IMG/VR virus record: IMGVR_UViG_2700989510_000001
Coordinates: 1-13,999 of that record
Source: a virus
Taxonomy: Duplodnaviria; Heunggongvirae; Uroviricota; Caudoviricetes
Reading direction: 5' to 3' (one strand)
DNA length: 13,999 bases
A program made the position numbers and the translations under genes. The notes below the pieces were generated by a model that saw nothing but the letters and a program-made list of their open reading frames with translations, was not told the origin of the DNA and did not search any database. How positions within the stretch are numbered: position 1 is the first letter of the stretch; each line of letters opens with the position of its first letter. This document shows, piece by piece, positions 1 to 12,032 of the stretch.

Positions 1-156
1 TTACTCCTCAGGTTCGTAAGCTGTGAAGACAGCGACCTCCGTCTGGCCGGTTCGGATTCGTACCTCGCAGAGGTCTTTCCTCGTTACCAGTGCCGTCACA
101 ATGACGGTTAAACAGATGACGATCAGGGCGATTAACATCGCCTTTTGCTGCTTCAT
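1..156 (-). CDS. hok: Hok/Gef family type I toxin, 51 aa
   Basis: Minus-strand translation MKQQKAMLIALIVICLTVIVTALVTRKDLCEVRIRTGQTEVAVFTAYEPEE: one N-terminal TM helix plus the conserved Hok motif (LTRK.LCE..R.G..EVA.F.AYE). AGGAG sits about 9 nt upstream of the ATG at 156; TAA stop at 1-3. The six-frame ORF extends in frame to 213 (70 aa), but the 51-aa form matches Hok family length. Confidence 0.8.
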   Translation of the reverse strand: MKQQKAMLIALIVICLTVIVTALVTRKDLCEVRIRTGQTEVAVFTAYEPEE

Positions 157-402
157 AGCCTGCTTCTCCTTGCCTTTCGGCACGTAAGAGGCTAACCTAC
201 GTTTGTGAAGCATAGATTGGGCCTCAGATTAATGTTAAACGTCTTGCAGGACGCGTAATGTTAACTGGGGCTTTTCTCTATCTGCCTTTTGGTGTTCATG
301 CCTGAGACAGATAGCCTCAAGCACCCGCAGCAATTCTACTTAACTCTCGCTTTACCGCAAACCGTTTTTACCCGATATGGGAATTCCCATATCGTAATGA
401 AT

Positions 403-1797: not shown

Positions 1798-2154
1798 TTA
1801 TTCAGTTCTGGATTTTGTCACCCTGCGTATCCGCGCTTTCACGTTACGCTCAATCTGAATTAGCTTTTCTATATTTCTCCGCCTTTCCCGTTCCTCCTGG
1901 CGCAAGATCCTTACATCATCTGCCAGTCTGGTTTCTCTTTTCGCCACAGAGAGCATCCAGTCAAATGGCTCCACAACTGCACCGCAGATTTTACAGCGGA
2001 CCTGACGCTCTTTTTCGTCAACCCGGACAGAGGCGTGATGGCAATATGGTCTTTCCGATGGCTCATAGAGAAAATTAACCTGATTACGTGGGTCATCCTC
2101 TTTTACCGGAAATAAAACGATATTGCTTAACTCATCTTCTGGTTTTATTTCCAT
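1798..2154 (-). CDS. hypothetical protein with putative zinc-ribbon (C-x-H-H ... C-K-I-C)
   Basis: 118-aa ORF. Strong SD (AAAGGAGAGGAGC) directly upstream of the ATG at 2152-2154. Start overlaps the end of the upstream gene by 23 nt. Cys/His cluster PYCHHASVRVDEKERQVRCKICG. Confidence 0.7.
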   Translation of the reverse strand: MEIKPEDELSNIVLFPVKEDDPRNQVNFLYEPSERPYCHHASVRVDEKERQVRCKICGAVVEPFDWMLSVAKRETRLADDVRILRQEERERRRNIEKLIQIERNVKARIRRVTKSRTE

Positions 2155-2851
2155 GCTCCTCTCCTTTGATGCGAATGCCAGCGGCGCGGATTGCAGCGAT
2201 GACTTCAGAAACTTTGTATGCCATTACCGTTTGGTAATCATCGTGAAAATCTGTTCGATGAAGCATGCTGCTACGTTCTGGGAGCGATATTTCCCGTGCT
2301 TCCAGTTCTGCAATGCGCTTCTCTGCGGATTCCAACGCCGCAACCAATTCGTCTACAGTTCCGGCAGCTTGCAGTGCGTAATCGGTAATAGCCATCTCAT
2401 GATCAATTTCAGTACCGTTCTCATTCGTTGAGGTGATAGCAAAATAATCAGAGTCGATTTCGTTATCAGCTAAGTGGCGTAGCGTATCGGCAACAAGCCG
2501 GCCGTTTTCGATTAGCAGCTTCCCTTCCGTAAGCGCAATCTCCTCGTTCTCCTGGTCGCGTGATTTGATGTATTGCTGGTTTCTTTCCCGTTCATCCAGT
2601 AGTGCCAGCGCAACATTTGGATTAAAGGCAGCAATAAATTCAGCGTTTGCGTAAGCCTGAGCATCTGTTTCAACCAGGCAGTTAACATGACATTCTGCAA
2701 TTACGCCACCGGGTTCTCCTTTCCATTTTTGACAAACAAAAACTCCTGTTATATTCCCATGCTGATTGCCCGATGTATGCCCTACGATGTAGCATCCTTT
2801 AGTTGCTTTCTCTGCTGCTTCACGAAGCGCCTCATAGTTAACCTCTCTCAT
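2132..2851 (-). CDS. Ead/Ea22-like prophage protein
   Basis: 239-aa ORF. N-terminus ...YEALREAAEKATKG... resembles lambdoid Ead/Ea22-like early proteins as I recall them. AGGAGGTGG SD upstream of the ATG at 2849-2851. ATGA start/stop overlap with the upstream gene. Confidence 0.75.
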   Translation of the reverse strand: MREVNYEALREAAEKATKGCYIVGHTSGNQHGNITGVFVCQKWKGEPGGVIAECHVNCLVETDAQAYANAEFIAAFNPNVALALLDERERNQQYIKSRDQENEEIALTEGKLLIENGRLVADTLRHLADNEIDSDYFAITSTNENGTEIDHEMAITDYALQAAGTVDELVAALESAEKRIAELEAREISLPERSSMLHRTDFHDDYQTVMAYKVSEVIAAIRAAGIRIKGEEHGNKTRR

Positions 2852-3144
2852 TGAGCCACCTCCTGATAAATCACCGTATGTCCCAGTTTCTCCGCCAGTG
2901 CCAGCTCTGCCTTAGCGCCCGCTGACCGCTGCCAGCCATTCAGCATGTAAATCGCATCCACGCAACGAATCATTGCCATGCAAATATCCATGTAGTGCGG
3001 CTGTGTCAGCCCGTCCGGAAGTACTGCCGGGTTTAAGACTGTATGCCCTTCCCGTTTCAGTTCCTCTTCCGCCTTGTGGAACGCCTCACGGTTGAAATTT
3101 TTATACCCGGTCATCGGACCGGCGATATAAACCCTCACCCTCAC
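2848..3144 (-). CDS. DUF4406-like (nucleoside 2-deoxyribosyltransferase-like fold) protein
   Basis: 98-aa ORF beginning (M)RVRVYIAGPMTGYKNFNREAF, the N-terminal motif I associate with DUF4406. GTG start at 3142-3144 with AGGAGGT 6 nt upstream; GTGA overlap with the upstream stop. Confidence 0.75.
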   Translation of the reverse strand: MRVRVYIAGPMTGYKNFNREAFHKAEEELKREGHTVLNPAVLPDGLTQPHYMDICMAMIRCVDAIYMLNGWQRSAGAKAELALAEKLGHTVIYQEVAQ

Positions 3145-3533
3145 TCCATCACCTCCTGAAAATTACCCCGATAGAACGCCAGCACACGCTGCATAACTTC
3201 GCTCTGGCGGCACTCACGACAAATTATGTTCTGCCGTCTGTTGTAACGACGTATTTCTCCGTCAGGTAACTTTCGAATCAGTGTCGGGTCAGCAGCCTTC
3301 TCCGGTGTCTTACGCCATACGCGATACGCCTGCTCTGATAGAAATACCCCGCAACCAGAGAGCCAGACATCACCACTGGCCGCAAGCGCACCAGATAAAC
3401 GACGAATAGCGGTCTTACTGACACCCGTTTTATCTGCCAGTTGTCGAAAAGTTTCTCGTCCGCTCAGGCGCACGAATTCCACAATGCGCGCCCTCACTTC
3501 TTCCCGCTCTTCTGGTGTAAATACTTTTGCCAT
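3141..3533 (-). CDS. hypothetical protein with probable HTH
   Basis: ORF track gives 3141..3548, but that first codon is TTG. The in-frame ATG at 3531-3533 (MAKVFTPEE...) has GGAGG 5 nt upstream and lies just after the upstream stop (3549-3551). Segment ETFRQLADKTGVSKTAIRRL looks like a helix-turn-helix. Confidence 0.7.
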   Translation of the reverse strand: MAKVFTPEEREEVRARIVEFVRLSGRETFRQLADKTGVSKTAIRRLSGALAASGDVWLSGCGVFLSEQAYRVWRKTPEKAADPTLIRKLPDGEIRRYNRRQNIICRECRQSEVMQRVLAFYRGNFQEVME

Positions 3534-3548: not shown

Positions 3549-4274
3549 TCACTTTTCCGACACAATACGACCGGATGAATCGACAATCTGCCGAACAATA
3601 TCCCGGTGCTTGTTCAGCTCCCGCAGCGCGGCGCAGACACGCTCCCACTTCTGAACCTGACCTTTTGCCCGGCGCAGCTCGCGGTTAGCCACATGCAGCG
3701 ATGGTAAAATCAGACCATCCGGATGTTTTCTGGTGAACAACGGCTGTGACTGCACTGTGACCGCCACACTTTCAGTTTTTATTTCTTCCTGTGTTTCCGC
3801 TTCCCGGACTGGTAACGCAACACCTGTTGGCTGAGGAAAGGCTTTACCATCGGTTTCCACTACGGATGCAGCTTCCGGCTCTGCCGGTAAATCAGCACCC
3901 GGTATGCAGTAACGAAATTTACCGCCCTGATTCACGCGAATCAGACGCCCTTTGCTGATTGCCATGGCCAGCGATGAATTCGCCCGGCGGGAGGTAATCC
4001 CGAACATCAGTGCCAGCTCATCCGCCGTTTGTGGGCCATGTTGTTCAATCGCCTCAGTCAGCATTTTCGCTGTCACTTTCGGTACCGGTGACACCGGTTC
4101 ACTTTCACCAGCCTGAATCAGCCACCACATCGACCCCTTGTTATCCGCTTCACCGCGGCGCTTCAGTTTCCACAGTTCGTTGACCGCATCTTCACGGCTG
4201 ATTCCAAGGCGGGCCGCCACTACCTGTGAAGAGGCTCTTTTCAGTGCTTTCAGTGCGTCAAATACGGTTTCCAT
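3549..4274 (-). CDS. prophage protein with two winged-helix-like segments (DUF1627-like)
   Basis: 241-aa ORF. ATG at 4272-4274 with GGAGGAAA SD. HTH-like segments [25 protein letters not shown] and [29 protein letters not shown]. Confidence 0.75.
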
Positions 4275-4307: not shown

Positions 4308-4970
4308 TCAAATAAAACCAGCTGCCTTCCGGCGTTCGTATTCCTGTTTCAGCCGTTCAATTGGCGTTGGCCCTTGCGGGTGTTTCGCCCCTTCCAGTTG
4401 TCGTCGCACTGGCGGAACACTCATCCCGTTACCAACATGCTTTGCCCATTTCGTCAGTTGCCGTTCCGCAAGTCGTTTTAACTCACCCTGCGTCATCTGG
4501 CGCTCAATCCCTCTGGTACGCATTTCGAGGCAGATGTGGTACAGCACAGGCTGTGGCCACGGGTATTTATCACTCCCGTCGTATCGCCAGGATTCATTGC
4601 GCCAGCGCCGGTACTCTTCCATCACGGCATCCACCGTAAGACCAAATGGATTTGCCCCACTCTCCGAAATCAGCGCAACAAACTCAGCCAGGTCCGGGGG
4701 CCACGTTTCACCCGCCCGGCAGCGGTCCATGCACTGACGGCAGACCAGACGGATTTGCTGTTCAGTCATCGCACCAATCTGGGCAATCCAGAGCTTCGAA
4801 GGTGCGGCCCCGTTCTTCTGAGTCCAGCGGTTCGAATACACCTCCCCCATAAGCTCCCACAGCTTCCAGGCCGTTTCCGTTGCTGATAAATCCGTTTTCA
4901 CGTTCCCACTGTTCGCGTGCTGCCCGGATTTCCTGAACTGCCCGTGATGCCGTGCCACCTGGTGCTGCAT
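4308..4970 (-). CDS. replication protein P-like (putative DnaB helicase loader)
   Basis: C-terminal half (...YPWPQPVLYHICLEMR...ELKRLAERQL...) parallels lambda P (...YPWKSNAHYWLVTNLY...ELRRKAADEL...) from memory. Start uncertain: the ATG at 4970 (AGGGGG SD) overlaps the upstream gene by 209 nt; an in-frame ATG at 4850 (GGGAG SD) is the alternative. Confidence 0.7.
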   Translation of the reverse strand: MQHQVARHHGQFRKSGQHANSGNVKTDLSATETAWKLWELMGEVYSNRWTQKNGAAPSKLWIAQIGAMTEQQIRLVCRQCMDRCRAGETWPPDLAEFVALISESGANPFGLTVDAVMEEYRRWRNESWRYDGSDKYPWPQPVLYHICLEMRTRGIERQMTQGELKRLAERQLTKWAKHVGNGMSVPPVRRQLEGAKHPQGPTPIERLKQEYERRKAAGFI

Positions 4971-5793
4971 GGCTTACCCCCTTGCTGACTGGTTTTACCT
5001 GTGCCCTGACGTGCTGCACGTGGCGGGCAAATTTCTGCTCCCACTGAACCTGCGTGAAAACCTTCCCTTCCGCCATCCAGTAATCCCGGAATGCGGCAAG
5101 CTCAGCAGGTGTAAATTCCGGCTCAGGCAGAGCCATACCCCACACTGCTGCCCGTTGTCGAAAATCCGGCGACGGCTGCCAGACAGTAGTCATCGAAAAT
5201 TTCCCGATCGGTTCGCTCAGGCCGTCCAGGTATTCAGGTTCGGCTGTCTGCAACGGCGCACCATTCGACTCACTGGTCGGAATACTCTCGCGCGCGTTAT
5301 GTGTGGGGTTTAATTCTGTATCTGTATCTTTATCTGTCGTGACTTGTCGTGACAGATGCGTGACACGTCGTGACTCATCGTGACAATCAGCATTATGTTT
5401 CCGCAGCTTTTCCCGCTCCCGCTGCGCTCTCTTGCGCTCTGCCGGGGATTTTGCCGTTTGCGAAACGTTACCATTGTCCTCTTTCAGCACCTGACGTTTT
5501 TCCCATCCGGAAATAAGGTCACCATCCAGAACCCGCCCCTGCATTGCATGCAAAATTGAATCAATTACGTCTTCCGTCACATCAAGCGCACTTGCTAAAT
5601 CTTCCGTCGTGACATCAATGTGACCACGTAGTGACACGCCGTGACATGTCGTGACATTTCGTGACGCGCTCACCAGAAGATGGATATACACTGCCATCAC
5701 TGTTGCGATTGGCTGTCCTGATACCCTGGCAATCGTTCGCCACTTGGGGTCATTTGGCATGTCATGCCACAATCTGAGCCAGGCATTAGCCAT
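4762..5793 (-). CDS. replication initiation protein (O-like role) with DnaT-like C-terminal domain
   Basis: Segment GKFSMTTVWQPSPDFRQRAAVWGMALPEPEFTPAELAAFRDYWMAEGKVFTQVQWEQKFARHVQ closely parallels the C-terminal domain of E. coli primosomal protein DnaT as I recall it. The ORF track starts at a GTG (5799); the ATG at 5791-5793 has AGAGGTGA SD. The gene contains two iteron arrays. Confidence 0.8.
   Translation of the reverse strand: MANAWLRLWHDMPNDPKWRTIARVSGQPIATVMAVYIHLLVSASRNVTTCHGVSLRGHIDVTTEDLASALDVTEDVIDSILHAMQGRVLDGDLISGWEKRQVLKEDNGNVSQTAKSPAERKRAQREREKLRKHNADCHDESRRVTHLSRQVTTDKDTDTELNPTHNARESIPTSESNGAPLQTAEPEYLDGLSEPIGKFSMTTVWQPSPDFRQRAAVWGMALPEPEFTPAELAAFRDYWMAEGKVFTQVQWEQKFARHVQHVRAQVKPVSKGVSHAAPGGTASRAVQEIRAAREQWERENGFISNGNGLEAVGAYGGGVFEPLDSEERGRTFEALDCPDWCDD
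5312..5386. repeat. iteron array 1 (putative phage origin element): TATCTGT repeats followed by 5 x (T/G)CGTGAC at about 10-bp spacing
   Basis: TCGTGAC at 5337, 5347, (GCGTGAC 5358), 5368, 5378, i.e. one per helical turn, all in the same orientation, preceded by tctgtatctgtatctttatctg. Lies inside the initiator gene. Confidence 0.6.
5605..5667. repeat. iteron array 2 (putative phage origin element): 6 x GTGAC(A) at 10-11 bp spacing
   Basis: GTGAC at 5609, 5620, 5631, 5641, 5651, 5661 with 10-11 bp periodicity, same orientation as array 1, about 270 bp away and inside the same gene. Confidence 0.6.
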
Positions 5794-5861
5794 ACTCACC
5801 TCTTCTGATACCGAACTTTACCCACGAACTTCCGAAAGAAATCCGGTATAAATATTGTTGG

Positions 5862-6287
5862 TCAATGCACAACAACTGCATTACCAGGCTGACCACCACT
5901 GTTAGTCAGGGTGCCCCAGGCGATCGCTACAGCGATAAAATCATCCACATCTTTCACCAGCCGATCCCGTCGTTCGACGATCTCCCGGTAATATTCAGAA
6001 CTGTGACTGCGCATACGGGCCACCAGCAAAGGCGGCATCGCCTTTTCGATCGCCGGTAACAGCGCCTGAATTTTTTCAACCGCATCAGGCGTATCCTTCT
6101 CCACCCAGCGGAAAATTTTCTGGGTATTACGGGCCAGGGCTTCCGGATGGCTGTCGTCGTACAGTTCCGGGAACGTCATCCCAAGTTCGAAATAAGTCCG
6201 GGCTATTTCAGCTGCAGGCACTTTCTCACCATCAGGATATGCCCAGGCATTCATCGCCATGCGGATGTGTTCATGTTTGATTTTCAT
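5862..6287 (-). CDS. CII-position protein, YdaT-like
   Basis: 141-aa ORF starting MKIKHEHI, which I recall as the N-terminus of Rac YdaT-family proteins. ATG at 6285-6287 overlaps the upstream stop (ATGA). Sits between the cro-like gene and the replication initiator, the lambda cII position. Confidence 0.65.
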   Translation of the reverse strand: MKIKHEHIRMAMNAWAYPDGEKVPAAEIARTYFELGMTFPELYDDSHPEALARNTQKIFRWVEKDTPDAVEKIQALLPAIEKAMPPLLVARMRSHSSEYYREIVERRDRLVKDVDDFIAVAIAWGTLTNSGGQPGNAVVVH

Positions 6288-6511
6288 GAATCATTTTTCC
6301 TTTCGTTCGAGGTGTTATCCTTCTTTTTGTAAAGTTCTGGGTTCAACGATAATTTTCCCTTGGAGTATGCAACTGCTTCAGCAGCCCTCCCCTTGGGAAC
6401 TATTTCGCCGGGACGCTTACGCCACATGTATATAGCTTCTCGGGTTACCCCATAAAAATCAGCGACTCTTTGGACAGAACCAAAAAACTGGACAAGTTCA
6501 TCAACTCGCAT
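6284..6511 (-). CDS. Cro-like HTH regulator (YdaS-like)
   Basis: 75-aa ORF with HTH segment VQRVADFYGVTREAIYMWRKR. GGGGGTG SD upstream of the ATG at 6509-6511. Divergent from the cI-like repressor across a 98-bp operator region. Confidence 0.75.
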   Translation of the reverse strand: MRVDELVQFFGSVQRVADFYGVTREAIYMWRKRPGEIVPKGRAAEAVAYSKGKLSLNPELYKKKDNTSNERKNDS

Positions 6512-6609: not shown

Positions 6610-7254
6610 ATGGAAAGCCTTGGCATTAGGCTTAAGAAACTCAGAAAAGACAAAGGTCTGACCCAAGTTGAACTTGGCAAGCTTTCTGGCGTAACTGGGG
6701 TAACAATAGGATACTGGGAGAAAGATCTAAACGAACCAGGTAGCAAAGCTCTTAGTAAATTAGCCCTAGCACTAGGCACTACTGAGTCCTATCTCCTGTA
6801 TGGAGTATCATCTCCTGAATCATCCCTTGTGCAGAAAAATCCAGGTACCCAAATCCCATACCTTTCTTGGGGAGAAGCGATTTCTTTCCTAATATTAAAA
6901 GGAGAGAAAACTATGGGAACTGTCGACAGGATCACCACATTCTTTGATGTCAAGGAGGGAGATTTTGCCGTTTCAATGCCTGATGATACTATGCACAATC
7001 CATCAGGGTCCCCAAGCATTCCAGTTGGAGCCACAGTGATCATGAGGCCTGGCGAAAAATATAAAAATGGTAGCATCGTCGCAGTAATAGTCCCAGATCC
7101 ACTCACAAACGAACCATCCATGACTATAAAAAAATTAGTTATTGATGGAAAGCTCGTGTACTTAGCCCCCCTTAACCCACGCTATCAATCATCCTTACTT
7201 ACACCGGAATGTAACATCGTTGCTGTAGCAAAAGGTGTTCAGTTCAGCCTCTAG
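6610..7254 (+). CDS. cI: cI-like prophage repressor: N-terminal HTH_XRE + C-terminal S24 (LexA-like) peptidase domain
   Basis: 214-aa ORF. HTH LTQVELGKLSGVTGVTIGYWE. C-terminal block TIKKLVIDGKLVYLAPLNPRYQ parallels lambda cI [21 protein letters not shown] (catalytic Lys region). Ser-Met in AVSMPDD is the candidate nucleophile. Confidence 0.9.
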   Translation: MESLGIRLKKLRKDKGLTQVELGKLSGVTGVTIGYWEKDLNEPGSKALSKLALALGTTESYLLYGVSSPESSLVQKNPGTQIPYLSWGEAISFLILKGEKTMGTVDRITTFFDVKEGDFAVSMPDDTMHNPSGSPSIPVGATVIMRPGEKYKNGSIVAVIVPDPLTNEPSMTIKKLVIDGKLVYLAPLNPRYQSSLLTPECNIVAVAKGVQFSL

Positions 7255-8541: not shown

Positions 8542-8940
8542 TTTATCCTCCATTGAGGTTCTGGGTTAAAAATGGAGACCAACACGCTGTCACGTGTGGT
8601 CGTGCGCCGGACACGGATAAGAATCCGGTACTGACAGTTTACTGAAAGGATATTTCCCTGAAAAGTCAGGGCATAACGCGAAAGCGTACGGCGAAGCTCT
8701 TTCCCTTAGAAGGCTTGTCGTTAGATTTCTTCGAACGTGCGCTTCCGGTTGTGGCAATCCGCGAAATGGCGCGGCGGTAAGTATGGCGGGGTTATTCCTT
8801 CCCCATTGAGGACACCGGGTTGTCAGGTTGACCATACGCTTAAGTGACAACCCCGCTGCAACGCCCTCTGTTATCAATTTTCTGGTGACGTTTGGCGGTA
8901 TCAGTTTTACTCCGTGGCTGCTCTGCCGCCCTTTTTAAAG

Positions 8941-9572: not shown

Positions 9573-12032
9573 ATGAGCACTGATAAAGAAGAATTTGCGC
9601 TATATTGCGAAGCAAAAAATGACAAAGTCAGAAAACGTCTGGGAATTAAAGGTGGTTTTTACTGGACTACAGCAAAAAAATTATCTGTTGCCATCTCCCG
9701 CTGCATTACCGCAATGGATGACAACGATTATGATGAAGACGACTTTAAAAAACCCGTTCGCGTCCATTTACCCGTTGTGAATGACCTTCCACCTGAAGGC
9801 GTGTTTGATACCGAATTCTGCAACCGATACGAAAAAGGCGGGGAAGATGGCATTACAATGGTATTTATCGCGCCCTCTCCCTCCGTGCAGGAGAAACCAG
9901 CCAGTACTGACAATACCAACGTCAACGGCGAAGACATGACGGAGATTGAGGAGAATATGCTCCTGCCGGTTTCTGGTCAGGAGCTGCCCATTCGCTGGCT
10001 TGCGCAACACGGCAGCGAAAAACCAGTAACGCACGTTGCACGGGAAGAACTTCAGGCATTACATATAGCACGGGCGGAAGAACTGCCGGCTGTTACTGCC
10101 CTGGCCATTTCCCACAACACAAAGCTGCTCGACCCGCTGGAGATTCGCGACCTTCATAAACTGGCACGCGACACTGACAAAGTTTTCCCTAATCCCGGTA
10201 ATTCAGACCTGGGACTGATAACTGCTTTTTTCGAGGCATACCTGGACGCTGACTACACTGATCGGGGTCTGCTGACAAAAGAGTGGATGAAAGGAAATCG
10301 TGTTTCGCGTATCACCCGTACGGCTTCCGGTGCAAATGCCGGTGGCGGGAACAAAACCGATCGCAATCCGAATTTAGTACACACCTTCGATACGCTGGAT
10401 GTGGAGATTGCAGCAGCCACACTTCCGATGGATTTTAATATTTATGAAATTCCGGGCAGCGTTTATCGTCGCGCAAAAGAAATCGTCCTGAAAAGAGAAA
10501 GTCCGTTCAAAGAATGGTCCGCAGCACTTCGCGCAACCCCGGGTATTCTGGACTATTCCCGCGCCGCTATTTTTGCACTTATCCGGAGCGCTCACCCTGA
10601 GTTTTATCACTACCCGGGACGCCTTCAGGGGTATATCAACGCCTACTTAACGGAGACTGATCACGAGAACCCCAGCAAGGAAACTCTCACTGCTGCACGA
10701 CATACACCGGAAAAAGATATCCTGGAAGAAGTTAACCGCGAACTGGCTGCTAAGCAGGAAACAGAAGAAGAAAATGATGAAGAAAAACCGCAACCATCTT
10801 GCGCAATGGCAGATGAACAGGCAACGGCTGAAACAGTGGAACCGGATGCAACTGAACATCATCAGGACACGCAGCCGCTGGATGCTCAGTCACAGGTAAA
10901 TTCTGTTGATGCGAAATATCAGAAACTGCGGGCAGAACTCCATGAAGCCCGGAAAAACATTCCGCCCCAAAATCCTGTCGATGCAGACAAATTACTGGCT
11001 GCCTCTCGCGGAGAATTTGTTGAAGGGATTAGCGACCCGAATGATCCGAAATGGATTAAGGGGATCCAGACCCGCGATTCTGTGTACCAGAATCAGCCAG
11101 AAACGGAACAGAACGACCAGAAAGCGGAACAGAACAGCCCAAATACGCAACAAAACGAGCCAGAAACGAAACAACCTGAACCAGTAGTGCAACAGGAACC
11201 GGAAAAGATCTGCACCACCTGCGGTCAGACCGGCGGCGGCAACTGCCCTGATTGTGGCGCGGTGATGGGCGACGCAACATACCAGGAAACATTCGATGAC
11301 AAGAACCTGGTTGAAGTTCAGGAAGACGATTCGGAGAAAATGGAAGGCGCTGAACATCCACACAAGGAGAATGCTGGCAGCGCTCAGGACCACGCCAGCG
11401 ATAGTGAAACTGGCGAGACGGCAGATCCCTTAATTACGGTGAACGGTCATCACGTTATCACATCCACCAGCAGGACGTGTGACCATCTAATGATCGACCT
11501 TGAAACCATGGGAAAAAATCCTGATGCCCCGATTATCTCAATAGGTGCAATATTTTTCGATCCGCAAACCGGAGATATGGGACCGGAATTTAGTAAGACT
11601 ATCGATCTGGAAACTGCTGGCGGAGTCATTGATCGGGACACCATTAAATGGTGGCTTAAGCAATCACGCGAAGCGCAATCTGCCATTATGACCGATGAAA
11701 TCCCGTTAGATGATGCACTGTTACAATTGCGGGAATTTATCGACGAAAACTCCGGTGAATTCTTTGTTCAGGTCTGGGGAAATGGAGCCAACTTCGACAA
11801 CACGATTTTGCGCCGTTCATACGAACGGCAGGGGATCCCCTGCCCGTGGCGTTACTACAACGATCGCGATGTGCGCACAATCGTTGAGCTGGGGAAAGCC
11901 ATAGACTTCGATGCCAGAACGGCTATTCCATTCGAAGGTGAGCGCCATAATGCACTTGATGACGCCCGTTACCAGGCAAAATACGTTTCAGTTATCTGGC
12001 AAAAACTGATCCCGAGTCAGGCTGATTCTTAA
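9573..12032 (+). CDS. prophage exonuclease: RecE-like N-terminal region + zinc ribbon + C-terminal DnaQ-like DEDDh 3'-5' exonuclease domain
   Basis: 819-aa ORF with GAGGT SD. N-terminal blocks ([70 protein letters not shown]) match what I recall of the RecE (exodeoxyribonuclease VIII) N-terminal region. [16 protein letters not shown] is a zinc-ribbon-like motif. C-terminus carries DEDDh motifs: MIDLETMG (D-x-E), [12 protein letters not shown] (D), HNALDDARY (H-x3-D). Confidence 0.9.

Follow-up and report, generated by a model that had tools for sequence, protein, structure and literature searches.

What reaction might be carried out by the small DUF4406 protein encoded in the early region of a lambdoid prophage, between a winged-HTH gene and an Ead/Ea22-like gene? 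We addressed this question for a gene in the first 13,999 nucleotides of the IMG/VR virus record IMGVR_UViG_2700989510_000001 (herein the window), using its sequence, its relatives and a structural model. The gene and its translation signals are as follows.

2848..3144, minus strand: DUF4406 gene, 98 amino acids, GTG start, TGA stop (ORF list; Pfam PF14359)
3141..3144, minus strand: GTGA overlap of the DUF4406 start codon with the DUF977 stop codon (sequence reading)
2848..2851, minus strand: ATGA overlap of the Ead/Ea22 start codon with the DUF4406 stop codon, TGA (sequence reading)
3152..3157, minus strand: AGGAGG ribosome-binding site 7 nt upstream of the DUF4406 GTG (sequence reading)
2859..2864, minus strand: AGGAGG ribosome-binding site 7 nt upstream of the Ead/Ea22 ATG (sequence reading)

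DUF4406 Is a Functional Gene of the Rightward Early Operon

The 98-codon minus-strand reading frame, with its GTGA and ATGA overlaps, is present exactly as a preliminary description of this DNA reported it, and the encoded protein contains the YIAGPMTG...NFNREAF motif quoted there (VYIAGPMTGYKNFNREAF). The RefSeq gene model in the annotation of Escherichia coli RM12579 is identical (297 nt, with a 4-nt overlap with DUF977). Because of this identical model and a dN/dS of 0.03 to 0.18 against 60 distinct homologous genes, which indicates purifying selection, the reading frame is a real, functional gene and not a chance one. Each AGGAGG lies within the last codons (Q-E-V) of the gene upstream of it, DUF977 in one case and DUF4406 in the other; both ends of DUF4406 thus combine the two marks of translational coupling, a start/stop overlap and a Shine-Dalgarno sequence inside the upstream gene. 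From the GTGA overlap and its AGGAGG we infer that translation of DUF4406 is coupled to that of the preceding DUF977. The surrounding genes are listed below.

6610-7254, plus strand: cI-like repressor
6284-6511, minus strand: Cro
4308..5799, minus strand: replication module (Pfam matches)
4762-5799, minus strand: O-like protein with a DnaT domain (Pfam)
4308-4970, minus strand: lambda P-like protein (Pfam)
3549..4274, minus strand: DUF1627 gene, immediately following the P-like replication gene (Pfam E=2.1e-81)
3141..3533, minus strand: DUF977 winged-HTH gene, the upstream neighbour, in the ren position (Pfam E=5.4e-41; phrog_142; 130-aa RefSeq model)
2132..2851, minus strand: Ead/Ea22-like gene, the downstream neighbour (Pfam PF13935, E=4e-31)

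Along one strand the gene order is cro, ydaT-like, O-like, P-like, DUF1627, DUF977 and DUF4406, followed by Ead/Ea22. The replication module, with its O-like and P-like genes, therefore places DUF4406 in the PR operon: the gene belongs to the rightward early operon of a Rac/lambdoid prophage and follows the replication genes there. What had been called an accessory operon is indeed an operon, more exactly the PR delayed-early operon, in which the gene occupies the ren/nin position beyond the replication genes. Judging from this position, PR would drive delayed-early transcription of DUF4406, right after that of the replication genes. A scan for promoters and terminators around DUF4406 and between the operon genes yielded nothing above the shuffled expectation. 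The PHROG label of the DUF977 neighbour is "Ren-like exclusion protein" (phrog_142). A start for DUF977 at TTG 3548 was considered less likely than the ATG at 3533, which gives the 130 residues of the RefSeq model; with the ATG start DUF1627 is not overlapped, and DUF977 begins 15 nt after it.

The DUF1627-DUF977-DUF4406-Ead block was found in 483 complete E. coli genomes. Neighbor variability and dN/dS were derived from a scan of IMG/VR loci that gave only close enterobacterial relatives; the genes next to 79 close DUF4406 homologs group into 7 clusters on the upstream side and 15 on the downstream side. As its neighbors vary to this extent, the DUF4406 protein would act alone. No partner gene is conserved at the loci of these close homologs, and the enterobacterial DUF4406 loci, including the window, contain no pyrophosphohydrolase partner.

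The Protein Belongs to a Large and Conserved Family

The protein matches Pfam DUF4406 (PF14359) across positions 2 through 91 of the 91-position profile (E=3e-38; 130.6 bits, cut-off 22) and PHROG 355, named "nucleoside 2-deoxyribosyltransferase" (E=2.8e-48). All eight residues that are invariant in DUF4406 (G9, F22, P39, P43, Y51, S74, G76 and E80), each occurring at 98 to 100% among 146 representatives, are found in it. The PF05014 model gave no match to the protein at E<=0.01, and its scores against DUF4406 homologs reach only 20 to 25 bits, below the cut-off of 28.8 (sub-threshold matches to N15 gp57 and Leona gp53). Searches with the PADLOC and NCBIfam models gave no match to the protein.

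The window gene is a common, already catalogued and annotated member of DUF4406. Of 5426 complete E. coli genomes, 1217 (about a fifth) contain it, and RefSeq names it "DUF4406 domain-containing protein" there; the best nucleotide match in these genomes is 98.7%, and the closest database clusters are 91 to 98% identical in protein. As another copy of so widely annotated a gene, it adds little by itself. WP_001266130.1 (E. coli O55:H7 RM12579) and the product of phage N15 gene 57 are fellow PF14359 members with no substantive difference. At least 703 of 50,697 phage records contain a relative, N15 gene 57 being one, and clustering at 50% identity divides the family into 18,014 clusters. The 36 longest close representatives were checked for fusions, and none has a second Pfam domain; their extensions are probably start-codon or gene-calling artifacts or unknown sequence. 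A literature search returned no functional study and no biochemical or genetic datum for any DUF4406 protein, and a preprint on Vibrio phage co-evolution does not mention DUF4406.

The Model Has a Minimal N-Deoxyribosyltransferase Fold

An AlphaFold (AF2) model of the protein (pLDDT 90.9) shows four successive β-α units. Foldseek searches of the PDB with this model returned nucleoside 2-deoxyribosyltransferases (NDTs; 2a0k and 8pqt), DNPH1 (9da6 and 8qhr) and MilB/BcmB as top matches, with TMq values of 0.63 to 0.79 and a probability of up to 1.0; for 2a0k, 8pqt, 9da6 and 4ohb the probability is 1.00 and TMq 0.7 to 0.79. The corresponding TMt is only about 0.5, and the protein stops after β4. 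The DUF4406 family profile matches the Trypanosoma brucei NDT 2A0K (E=1.3e-4) and also Leishmania mexicana 6QAI. A diverse family profile was needed to reach 2A0K; PDB sequence searches with the single protein or a shallow alignment gave spurious matches only. The model, the Foldseek matches and the match to 2A0K bear out the NDT-like family and fold that the preliminary description had assigned, and as modeled the protein is a minimal version of the N-deoxyribosyltransferase-superfamily fold, with four β-α units in 98 residues.

The profile match spans residues 10 through 108 of the 161-residue 2A0K chain, so that the C-terminal ∼50 residues (about one third) have no counterpart. In published structures of NDTs and DNPH1 this C-terminal α/β region completes the active site of the neighboring subunit, to which it contributes base- or phosphate-binding residues. 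Because these elements are missing, the active site of the DUF4406 protein may be incomplete or differently built.

The Predicted Active Site Keeps the Catalytic Glutamate

Candidate active-site residues were located by alignment with 2A0K and with DmtZ, a phage-encoded NDT-superfamily enzyme of Z-genome actinophages (Gordonia phage Ghobes gp53, AOE44404.1; PMC12884076). This mapping relies on weak sequence-profile alignments (2A0K, E=1.3e-4; DmtZ, E=0.09) and not on residue-level structural superposition; conservation is counted among DUF4406 representatives at 50% identity (140 to 146 per position).

2905..2907, minus strand: Glu80 codon, predicted catalytic nucleophile, aligned to the catalytic Glu of 2A0K and Glu103 of DmtZ
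2923..2925, minus strand: Ser74 codon, at the site of the 5'-OH-binding Asp of NDTs (Ser98 in DNPH1), aligned to the Asp in 2A0K
2980..2982, minus strand: Cys55 codon, at the site of the superfamily triad Asp/Asn, aligned to the Asn of 2A0K and Asn77 of DmtZ
3028..3030, minus strand: Pro39 codon, in LNPA after β2, aligned to the Pro of LIP in 2A0K
3127..3129, minus strand: Tyr6 codon, triad tyrosine in the β1 motif YIAGP, aligned to the Tyr of KIYIAGP in 2A0K

Absence of catalytic residues had been named as grounds for giving up an enzymatic role; the key residue is there. Glu80 closes the motif S74-A-G-A-K-A-E80 at the N terminus of the helix after β3, the nucleophile position of the superfamily, and is Glu in 138 of 140 representatives; position 6 is Tyr in 120 of 140 and Phe in 19. 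Ser74 is invariant (141 of 141), Gly76 is kept in 139 of 141, Pro39 in 144 of 146, and Tyr51 is near-invariant across more than 140 divergent representatives. The triad Asp/Asn on the helix before β3 was not found in the protein, which has Cys55 instead; among 146 representatives this position is Cys in 99, Asp in 20 and Thr in 10, and Ala, Gly and Ser also occur. Asp53 (in YMD) was considered as the triad aspartate and rejected, being kept in only 65 of 146 representatives; both alignments put the triad position at Cys55. For the superfamily, the β1 Tyr rather than Phe has been described as the deoxyribose-selecting state, a noncharged residue replacing the 5'-OH-binding Asp/Asn as a mark of dNMP-specific enzymes, and the Pro after β2 as a conserved, "water-excluding" feature of transferases, although the effect of P57A in DmtZ was modest (PMC12884076). 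Pro39 thus counts against a pure hydrolase, an argument softened by the modest P57A effect.

Comparison with characterized enzymes yields a mixed picture. The NDTs (PF05014; T. brucei 2A0K, L. mexicana 6QAI, C. thermalis 8PQT) are the best structural and profile matches and share the YIAGP β1 motif, the catalytic Glu and the Pro after β2; however, they are about 150 to 160 residues long, against 98, and have the 5'-OH-binding Asp and the triad Asp/Asn where the window protein has Ser74 and Cys55. DNPH1/Rcl (PDB 8QHR and 4FYH), a 2'-deoxynucleoside 5'-phosphate N-hydrolase, is alike in fold (TMq 0.69 to 0.74), in its β1 Tyr and in an S-x-G-x-x-x-E motif with the Ser on the 5'-phosphate side (S98-L-G-V-G-Y-E104, within PSLGVGYE). 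It differs in being ∼45 residues longer, in using Ser128 of the partner subunit, and in having Asp80 at the position of Cys55 and Glu55-His56 after β2 in place of Asn38-Pro39. Identity between the two proteins is 17 to 22%, and hhalign produced no usable alignment of the DUF4406 family with human DNPH1 (probability 0.4%, E=0.15). MilB/BcmB (PDB 4JEM and 4JEN), N-glycosidases of CMP and hydroxymethyl-CMP, resemble the protein in fold (TMq 0.63 to 0.79), act on nucleotide monophosphates and have a Glu nucleophile; they are longer, come from antibiotic biosynthesis clusters, and are ribo-specific, the β1 Tyr being replaced by Phe (PMC12884076), where the window protein has Tyr6.

DmtZ and DUF4406 both mix hydrolase-like (uncharged 5'-phosphate pocket) with transferase-like (Pro) features, and each is fused to or adjoins a dNTP (pyro)phosphohydrolase, in the case of DUF4406 in phages other than that of the window. 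In a local alignment E103 and N77 of DmtZ stand opposite E80 and C55, with an hhalign E of 0.09 that is not significant. DmtZ has 161 residues, including Trp124, which serves as a lid on the partner subunit, and falls outside every Pfam model, whereas the window protein has 98 residues and belongs to PF14359. DmtZ serves 2-aminoadenine genomes; this prophage contains no purZ.

A Candidate Enzyme of Deoxynucleotide Monophosphates

Links to dNTP pyrophosphohydrolases come from more distant relatives. Mycobacteriophage NihilNomen gp166 is a fusion of DUF4406 with a PRA-PH/MazG-like domain; in mycobacteriophage DrDrey, gp111 (DUF4406) adjoins gp112, a PF04447 dATP/dGTP pyrophosphohydrolase; and BFVD relatives with 32 to 41% identity bear a "dATP/dGTP diphosphohydrolase N-terminal domain". 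DUF4406 also forms one half of PHROGs 12019 and 15484 ("MazG-like pyrophosphatase" and "hydrolase"). True fusions were seen only in more distant actinophage members of the family. dNTP pyrophosphohydrolases yield dNMPs, not nucleosides. Biochemical work on phage DmtZ, where a DutZ-DmtZ fusion occurs, has validated the same logic (PMC12884076).

By analogy with these enzymes, our preferred reading, to which we give about an even chance, is that the gene product is a stand-alone, minimal superfamily member acting as a 2'-deoxynucleoside-5'-monophosphate N-glycosidase or deoxyribose-5-phosphate transferase. Glu80, oriented by Tyr6, would attack C1' of a 2'-deoxyribonucleotide, expelling the base and forming a covalent deoxyribosyl-enzyme intermediate; this would be resolved by water, as in a DNPH1-like N-glycosidase, or by another base, as in a deoxyribose-5-phosphate transferase like phage DmtZ. 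A 5'-monophosphate seems a likelier substrate than a nucleoside because the invariant, uncharged Ser74 replaces the 5'-OH-binding Asp and because of the pyrophosphohydrolase links. Of the nucleosides or nucleotides proposed earlier as substrates, the evidence thus favors nucleotides, as dNMPs, and points away from nucleosides. Catalysis, substrate class and biological role are all deduced here from comparison; the activity may serve to trim or rebalance the deoxynucleotide pool during phage replication. To our knowledge, no requirement for an activity of this kind has been described for a lambdoid phage with canonical DNA.

A genuine nucleoside 2-deoxyribosyltransferase (EC 2.4.2.6), swapping bases between free deoxynucleosides in salvage, is what PHROG and many GenBank annotations imply. 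The shared fold, with NDTs as the best PDB matches, the profile matches to 2A0K and 6QAI, the alignment of Pro39 with the transferase-type Pro and the sub-threshold PF05014 matches of N15 gp57 and Leona gp53 agree with it. The protein itself nevertheless lacks a PF05014 match, has invariant Ser74 for the 5'-OH-binding Asp, and is missing the C-terminal region that holds the partner subunit's base-binding residues, and the fused or adjoining pyrophosphohydrolases make dNMPs rather than nucleosides; we consider this assignment unlikely. The label "nucleoside 2-deoxyribosyltransferase-like" therefore holds for the fold and not for a canonical NDT, given also Cys55. The loss of the triad Asp/Asn and of the C-terminal third that elsewhere completes the active site would suit a noncatalytic nucleotide-binding protein, a sponge or regulator that kept the fold and lost turnover. 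Yet Glu80, Ser74, Gly76 and Tyr51 are near-invariant in more than 140 representatives, as expected of an active site, and the Glu is not obviously needed for binding alone, which makes such a protein distinctly improbable.

Early expression, small size, a mosaic "cassette" with variable neighbors and wide spread among unrelated phages are typical of anti-defense genes, and the fold is common to TIR domains (Foldseek also matched 7xoz) and to an NDT-like retron effector that depletes adenine derivatives. The protein might on these grounds be a counter-defense enzyme that destroys a nucleotide-derived immune signal or toxic nucleotide, or hydrolyzes NAD-type compounds as the NDT-like effector of retron Ec86 does. 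Against this, none of the defense-related PADLOC models matched, the literature search gave no link, the fusions point to housekeeping-type dNTP catabolism, and the very high conservation and low dN/dS are unlike many fast-evolving anti-defense proteins; we think a counter-defense role quite unlikely. Candidate targets for such an enzyme would be ADP-ribose-type signals or a modified dNTP or dNMP. A DNA or RNA N-glycosidase acting on polymeric nucleic acid, possibly tied to adjoining DNA methyltransferases, seems highly improbable. DUF4406 does adjoin a DNA methyltransferase gene in N15 (gene 57/58) and in Pseudomonas phage Touem01 (gp3/gp4), Dam lies immediately upstream of it in three IMG/VR loci, and the missing C-terminal lid could open the pocket to a larger substrate. 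The 98-residue, single-domain protein has no evident DNA-binding surface or domain, however; no characterized superfamily member among the Foldseek matches acts on polymers, and methyltransferases are common in these regions, so that their adjacency may be chance. The DNA modification and counter-defense roles raised in the preliminary description remain conjectural and draw no support from PADLOC, partner genes or the literature.

The interest of the dNMP N-glycosidase or transferase reading lies in the family, which is large, is under strong purifying selection and keeps the glutamate predicted for covalent catalysis. It offers a clear hypothesis that is cheap to test, a dNMP N-glycosidase or deoxyribose-5-phosphate transferase that acts after dNTP pyrophosphohydrolases. 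If this is correct, phages with ordinary DNA would routinely reshape deoxynucleotide pools, by the very chemistry lately described in 2-aminoadenine phages. An unlikely but broader version is that DUF4406 as a whole forms a very large class of minimal, lid-free deoxyribose-5-phosphate transferases or dNMP N-glycosidases, with Cys, Asp or Thr for the Asp/Asn, by which temperate phages with canonical DNA remove or convert one deoxynucleotide in early replication. For such a class the target could be, for example, a noncanonical or host-defense-generated dNMP, and DUF4406 would be a widespread relative of the Z-genome DmtZ.

DUF4406 Is a Translationally Overlapping Gene with Matching Junctions

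The gene and the ribosome-binding sites at its two ends lie as follows:

2848-3144, minus strand: DUF4406 ORF, 98 codons, GTG start
3157-3152, minus strand: AGGAGG, 7 nt before the DUF4406 start
2864-2859, minus strand: AGGAGG, 7 nt before the start of the downstream Ead/Ea22-like gene

The ORF and its overlaps with both neighbors, proposed in the preliminary description, were borne out by reading the sequence. Positions 3144 through 3141 (minus strand) are GTGA, so the GTG start overlaps the TGA of the gene upstream; 2851 through 2848 are ATGA, so the ATG of the downstream gene overlaps the DUF4406 TGA. Pfam also agrees with the neighbors suggested there: DUF977, a winged-HTH protein with the PHROG label "Ren-like," lies directly upstream, preceded by DUF1627, and an Ead/Ea22-like gene lies downstream. 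The DUF977 start is most likely the ATG at 3533, matching the RefSeq model, which leaves a short gap after DUF1627 and no overlap between the two. The sequence CAGGAGGTG is common to both DUF4406 junctions (2852 through 2867 and 3145 through 3160, minus strand); it contains the AGGAGG ribosome-binding site and at both codes for Q-E-V close to the C terminus of the upstream protein. It resembles a reusable boundary sequence between modules and could favor cassette exchange.

DUF4406 is a real and common gene. Its dN/dS is 0.03 to 0.18 in comparisons with 60 distinct homologs drawn from IMG/VR contigs, and the 297-nt gene occurs, at ≥80% nucleotide identity and in up to four copies, in 1217 of 5426 complete Escherichia coli genomes ("DUF4406 domain-containing protein" is the RefSeq name among the matches listed), 483 E. 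coli genomes carrying the complete DUF1627-DUF977-DUF4406-Ead block. Database relatives of the protein are up to 98% identical. Of 50,697 phage records, at least 703 carry relatives, with hosts in the Proteobacteria and Actinobacteria and with gene 57 of phage N15 among them; an exhaustive HMM search gave 18,014 clusters at 50% identity. Across 79 loci with close homologs, 7 unrelated clusters are represented by the upstream gene (DUF977, another HTH protein, DnaB, Dam, and others) and 15 by the downstream gene, so that DUF4406 behaves like an independent cassette, tied to no particular partner gene.

DUF4406 Occupies the ren/nin Position of a Rac/Lambdoid Prophage

The window spans the left half of a Rac/lambdoid prophage, whose early control genes are arranged as follows:

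6610-7254, plus strand: cI-like S24 repressor
6284-6511, minus strand: Cro
5862-6287, minus strand: YdaT_toxin-family gene (E = 7e-10), in the cII position, right behind cro

DUF1391, DicF RNA, an ExoVIII-like exonuclease, excisionase, and integrase are also on the plus strand. The minus strand runs through Cro, YdaT-like, O-like with a DnaT domain, lambda-P-like, DUF1627, DUF977, DUF4406, Ead/Ea22, a zinc-ribbon protein, two small proteins, and hok/sok; by this order DUF4406 is a PR-operon gene in the ren/nin position, right after the replication genes. A promoter and terminator scan between DUF4406 and the replication genes gave no signal above shuffled expectation. We infer delayed-early expression solely from operon position.

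The YdaT_toxin-family gene in the cII position is an arrangement as in Rac-like prophages. The P-like ORF, as mechanically listed from the ATG at 4970, shares 209 nt (4762-4970, minus strand) with the O-like gene. Since its Pfam match does not set in before residue 58, translation probably begins at a more downstream codon.

The Protein Retains the Predicted Nucleophile of the NDT Fold

Judged from its sequence, the protein is a bona fide PF14359 member; the whole-domain Pfam match has E = 3e-38 (130.6 bits, cut-off 22), and PHROG 355, "nucleoside 2-deoxyribosyltransferase," is matched as well. A confident AlphaFold2 model built from a 40-sequence alignment (pLDDT 90.9, pTM 0.85) has four β-α units. 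Foldseek against the PDB retrieves nucleoside 2-deoxyribosyltransferases (NDTs), the 2'-deoxynucleoside 5'-phosphate N-hydrolase DNPH1, and the CMP N-glycosidases MilB and BcmB (probability 1.0, TMq 0.63-0.79, 15-25% identity), and a diverse family profile matches the Trypanosoma brucei NDT 2A0K by sequence alone (E = 1.3e-4). In the profile alignment Y6 pairs with the β1 Tyr of 2A0K, P39 with the Pro after β2, C55 with the triad Asn, S74 with the 5'-OH-binding Asp, and E80 with the catalytic Glu; a weak hhalign alignment to DmtZ, a characterised NDT-superfamily enzyme of Z-genome actinophages, gives the same pairing at two of these positions (E80/E103 and C55/N77).

Conservation was counted over 146 DUF4406 representatives at ≤50% identity. 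Ser is found at S74 in 141/141, Gly at G9 in 140/140, Phe at F22 in 143/143, Glu at E80 in 138/140, and Tyr at Y51 and Pro at P39 each in 144/146. At position 6, 120 have Tyr and 19 have Phe; at position 55, 99 have Cys and 20 have Asp. The counts and alignments together indicate that the predicted nucleophile E80 and its tyrosine Y6 are retained. The canonical triad Asp/Asn is not kept; D53, at first sight the triad Asp, was ruled out, being kept in just 65 of 146. In published NDT and DNPH1 structures a C-terminal segment completes the active site of the partner subunit. The last ~50 residues of classical NDTs are absent here, and DUF4406 thus differs from those enzymes in both the triad Asp/Asn and the partner-subunit segment. 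With these two defining features lacking, the protein, predicted to work like an NDT or DNPH1, should be filed neither as an NDT nor as a DNPH1 orthologue.

A 2'-Deoxynucleoside 5'-Monophosphate Is the Proposed Substrate

The S-x-G-x-x-x-E motif of the protein corresponds to S98...E104 of DNPH1, whose sequence was checked. The DmtZ study takes a small, uncharged residue replacing the 5'-OH-binding Asp/Asn as the mark of enzymes that accept a 5'-phosphate, and the β1 Tyr as excluding ribose (PMC12884076). The domain is fused to a PRA-PH/MazG-like pyrophosphohydrolase in Mycobacterium phage NihilNomen gp166 (L008 1480-2226) and to a "dATP/dGTP diphosphohydrolase N-terminal domain" in BFVD relatives; in DrDrey (gp111/gp112, L009 1441-2132) a PF04447 dATP/dGTP pyrophosphohydrolase gene follows directly. 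This "Rosetta-stone" evidence points to a tie with enzymes producing dNMP from dNTP. For DmtZ and its pyrophosphohydrolase partner DutZ, separate or fused, biochemical work has shown that dATP is passed on to dAMP, which then yields adenine or, through base transfer, dZMP (PMC12884076). From the motif, these links, and the DutZ-DmtZ arrangement, we therefore propose a 2'-deoxynucleoside 5'-monophosphate as substrate. Glu80 would form a covalent deoxyribosyl-5-phosphate intermediate, to be resolved by water or another base. Pro39, a conserved residue of transferase type, would leave base transfer open; P57A in DmtZ had a small effect (PMC12884076). In a lambdoid phage with canonical DNA, the simplest reading of the benefit would be pool balancing or removal of unwanted dNMP during replication. 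That the protein is an active N-glycosidic-bond enzyme appears probable; that it is an enzyme acting on dNMP we put at roughly an even chance.

The interpretation in the preliminary description is thus supported in part: its fold assignment stands, on Foldseek, a nucleophile is present, on E80 conservation, and "nucleoside" should read "nucleotide." A true nucleoside deoxyribosyltransferase is unlikely given Ser74, the missing C terminus, and the lack of a PF05014 match. The DNA-modification and counter-defence roles it considered conceivable are unsupported. Cassette-like behavior and early expression, as inferred from position, would fit an enzyme acting on a nucleotide-derived signal or NAD in counter-defence, but neither PADLOC nor the literature searched yielded a link and conservation is unusually high, making this quite unlikely. 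Near-invariance of Glu80 renders a non-catalytic nucleotide binder very doubtful.

The sole hint of a glycosylase acting on DNA, a highly improbable reading, is that DUF4406 repeatedly lies next to DNA methyltransferase genes. DUF4406 abuts or overlaps a C5-cytosine DNA methyltransferase gene in N15 (genes 57/58, L010 2995-4303), a putative DNA methylase gene in Pseudomonas phage Touem01 (gp3/gp4, L007 905-2559), and a Dam gene at three IMG/VR loci (for example, L077 1965-2504). Such proximity may reflect a functional connection or have arisen by chance within early regions.

A literature search found no paper characterising DUF4406. The gene itself was already annotated, and PHROGs and GenBank notes already assign it to its superfamily; what is new here is limited to the interpretation of individual residues and the connection with dNTP pyrophosphohydrolases. 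The target is an ordinary, very common prophage gene, of an enzyme family that is uncharacterised but tractable. GenBank product names of actinophage DUF4406 genes are inconsistent (hydrolase, MazG-like pyrophosphatase, deoxycytidylate deaminase, glycosyltransferase, CMP hydrolase).

Other Elements in the Window

1-213, minus strand: hok/gef-family toxin ORF (Pfam HOK_GEF, E = 3e-23)
151-326, minus-strand entry: sok antisense RNA (Rfam RF01794, 118.5 bits)
8880-8931, plus strand: DicF small RNA (Rfam RF00039, 75 bits, full length)
9573-12032, plus strand: 819-aa exonuclease protein

The hok/sok pair (1-326) is a type I toxin-antitoxin system at the distal end of the nin-like region, and DicF lies on the PL side, an arrangement shared with Qin/Rac-type prophages. 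The 819-aa protein joins an N-terminal exodeoxyribonuclease VIII domain (E = 5e-34) to a C-terminal Rv2179c-like 3'-5' exoribonuclease domain (E = 2e-67), the latter replacing the usual RecE nuclease domain.
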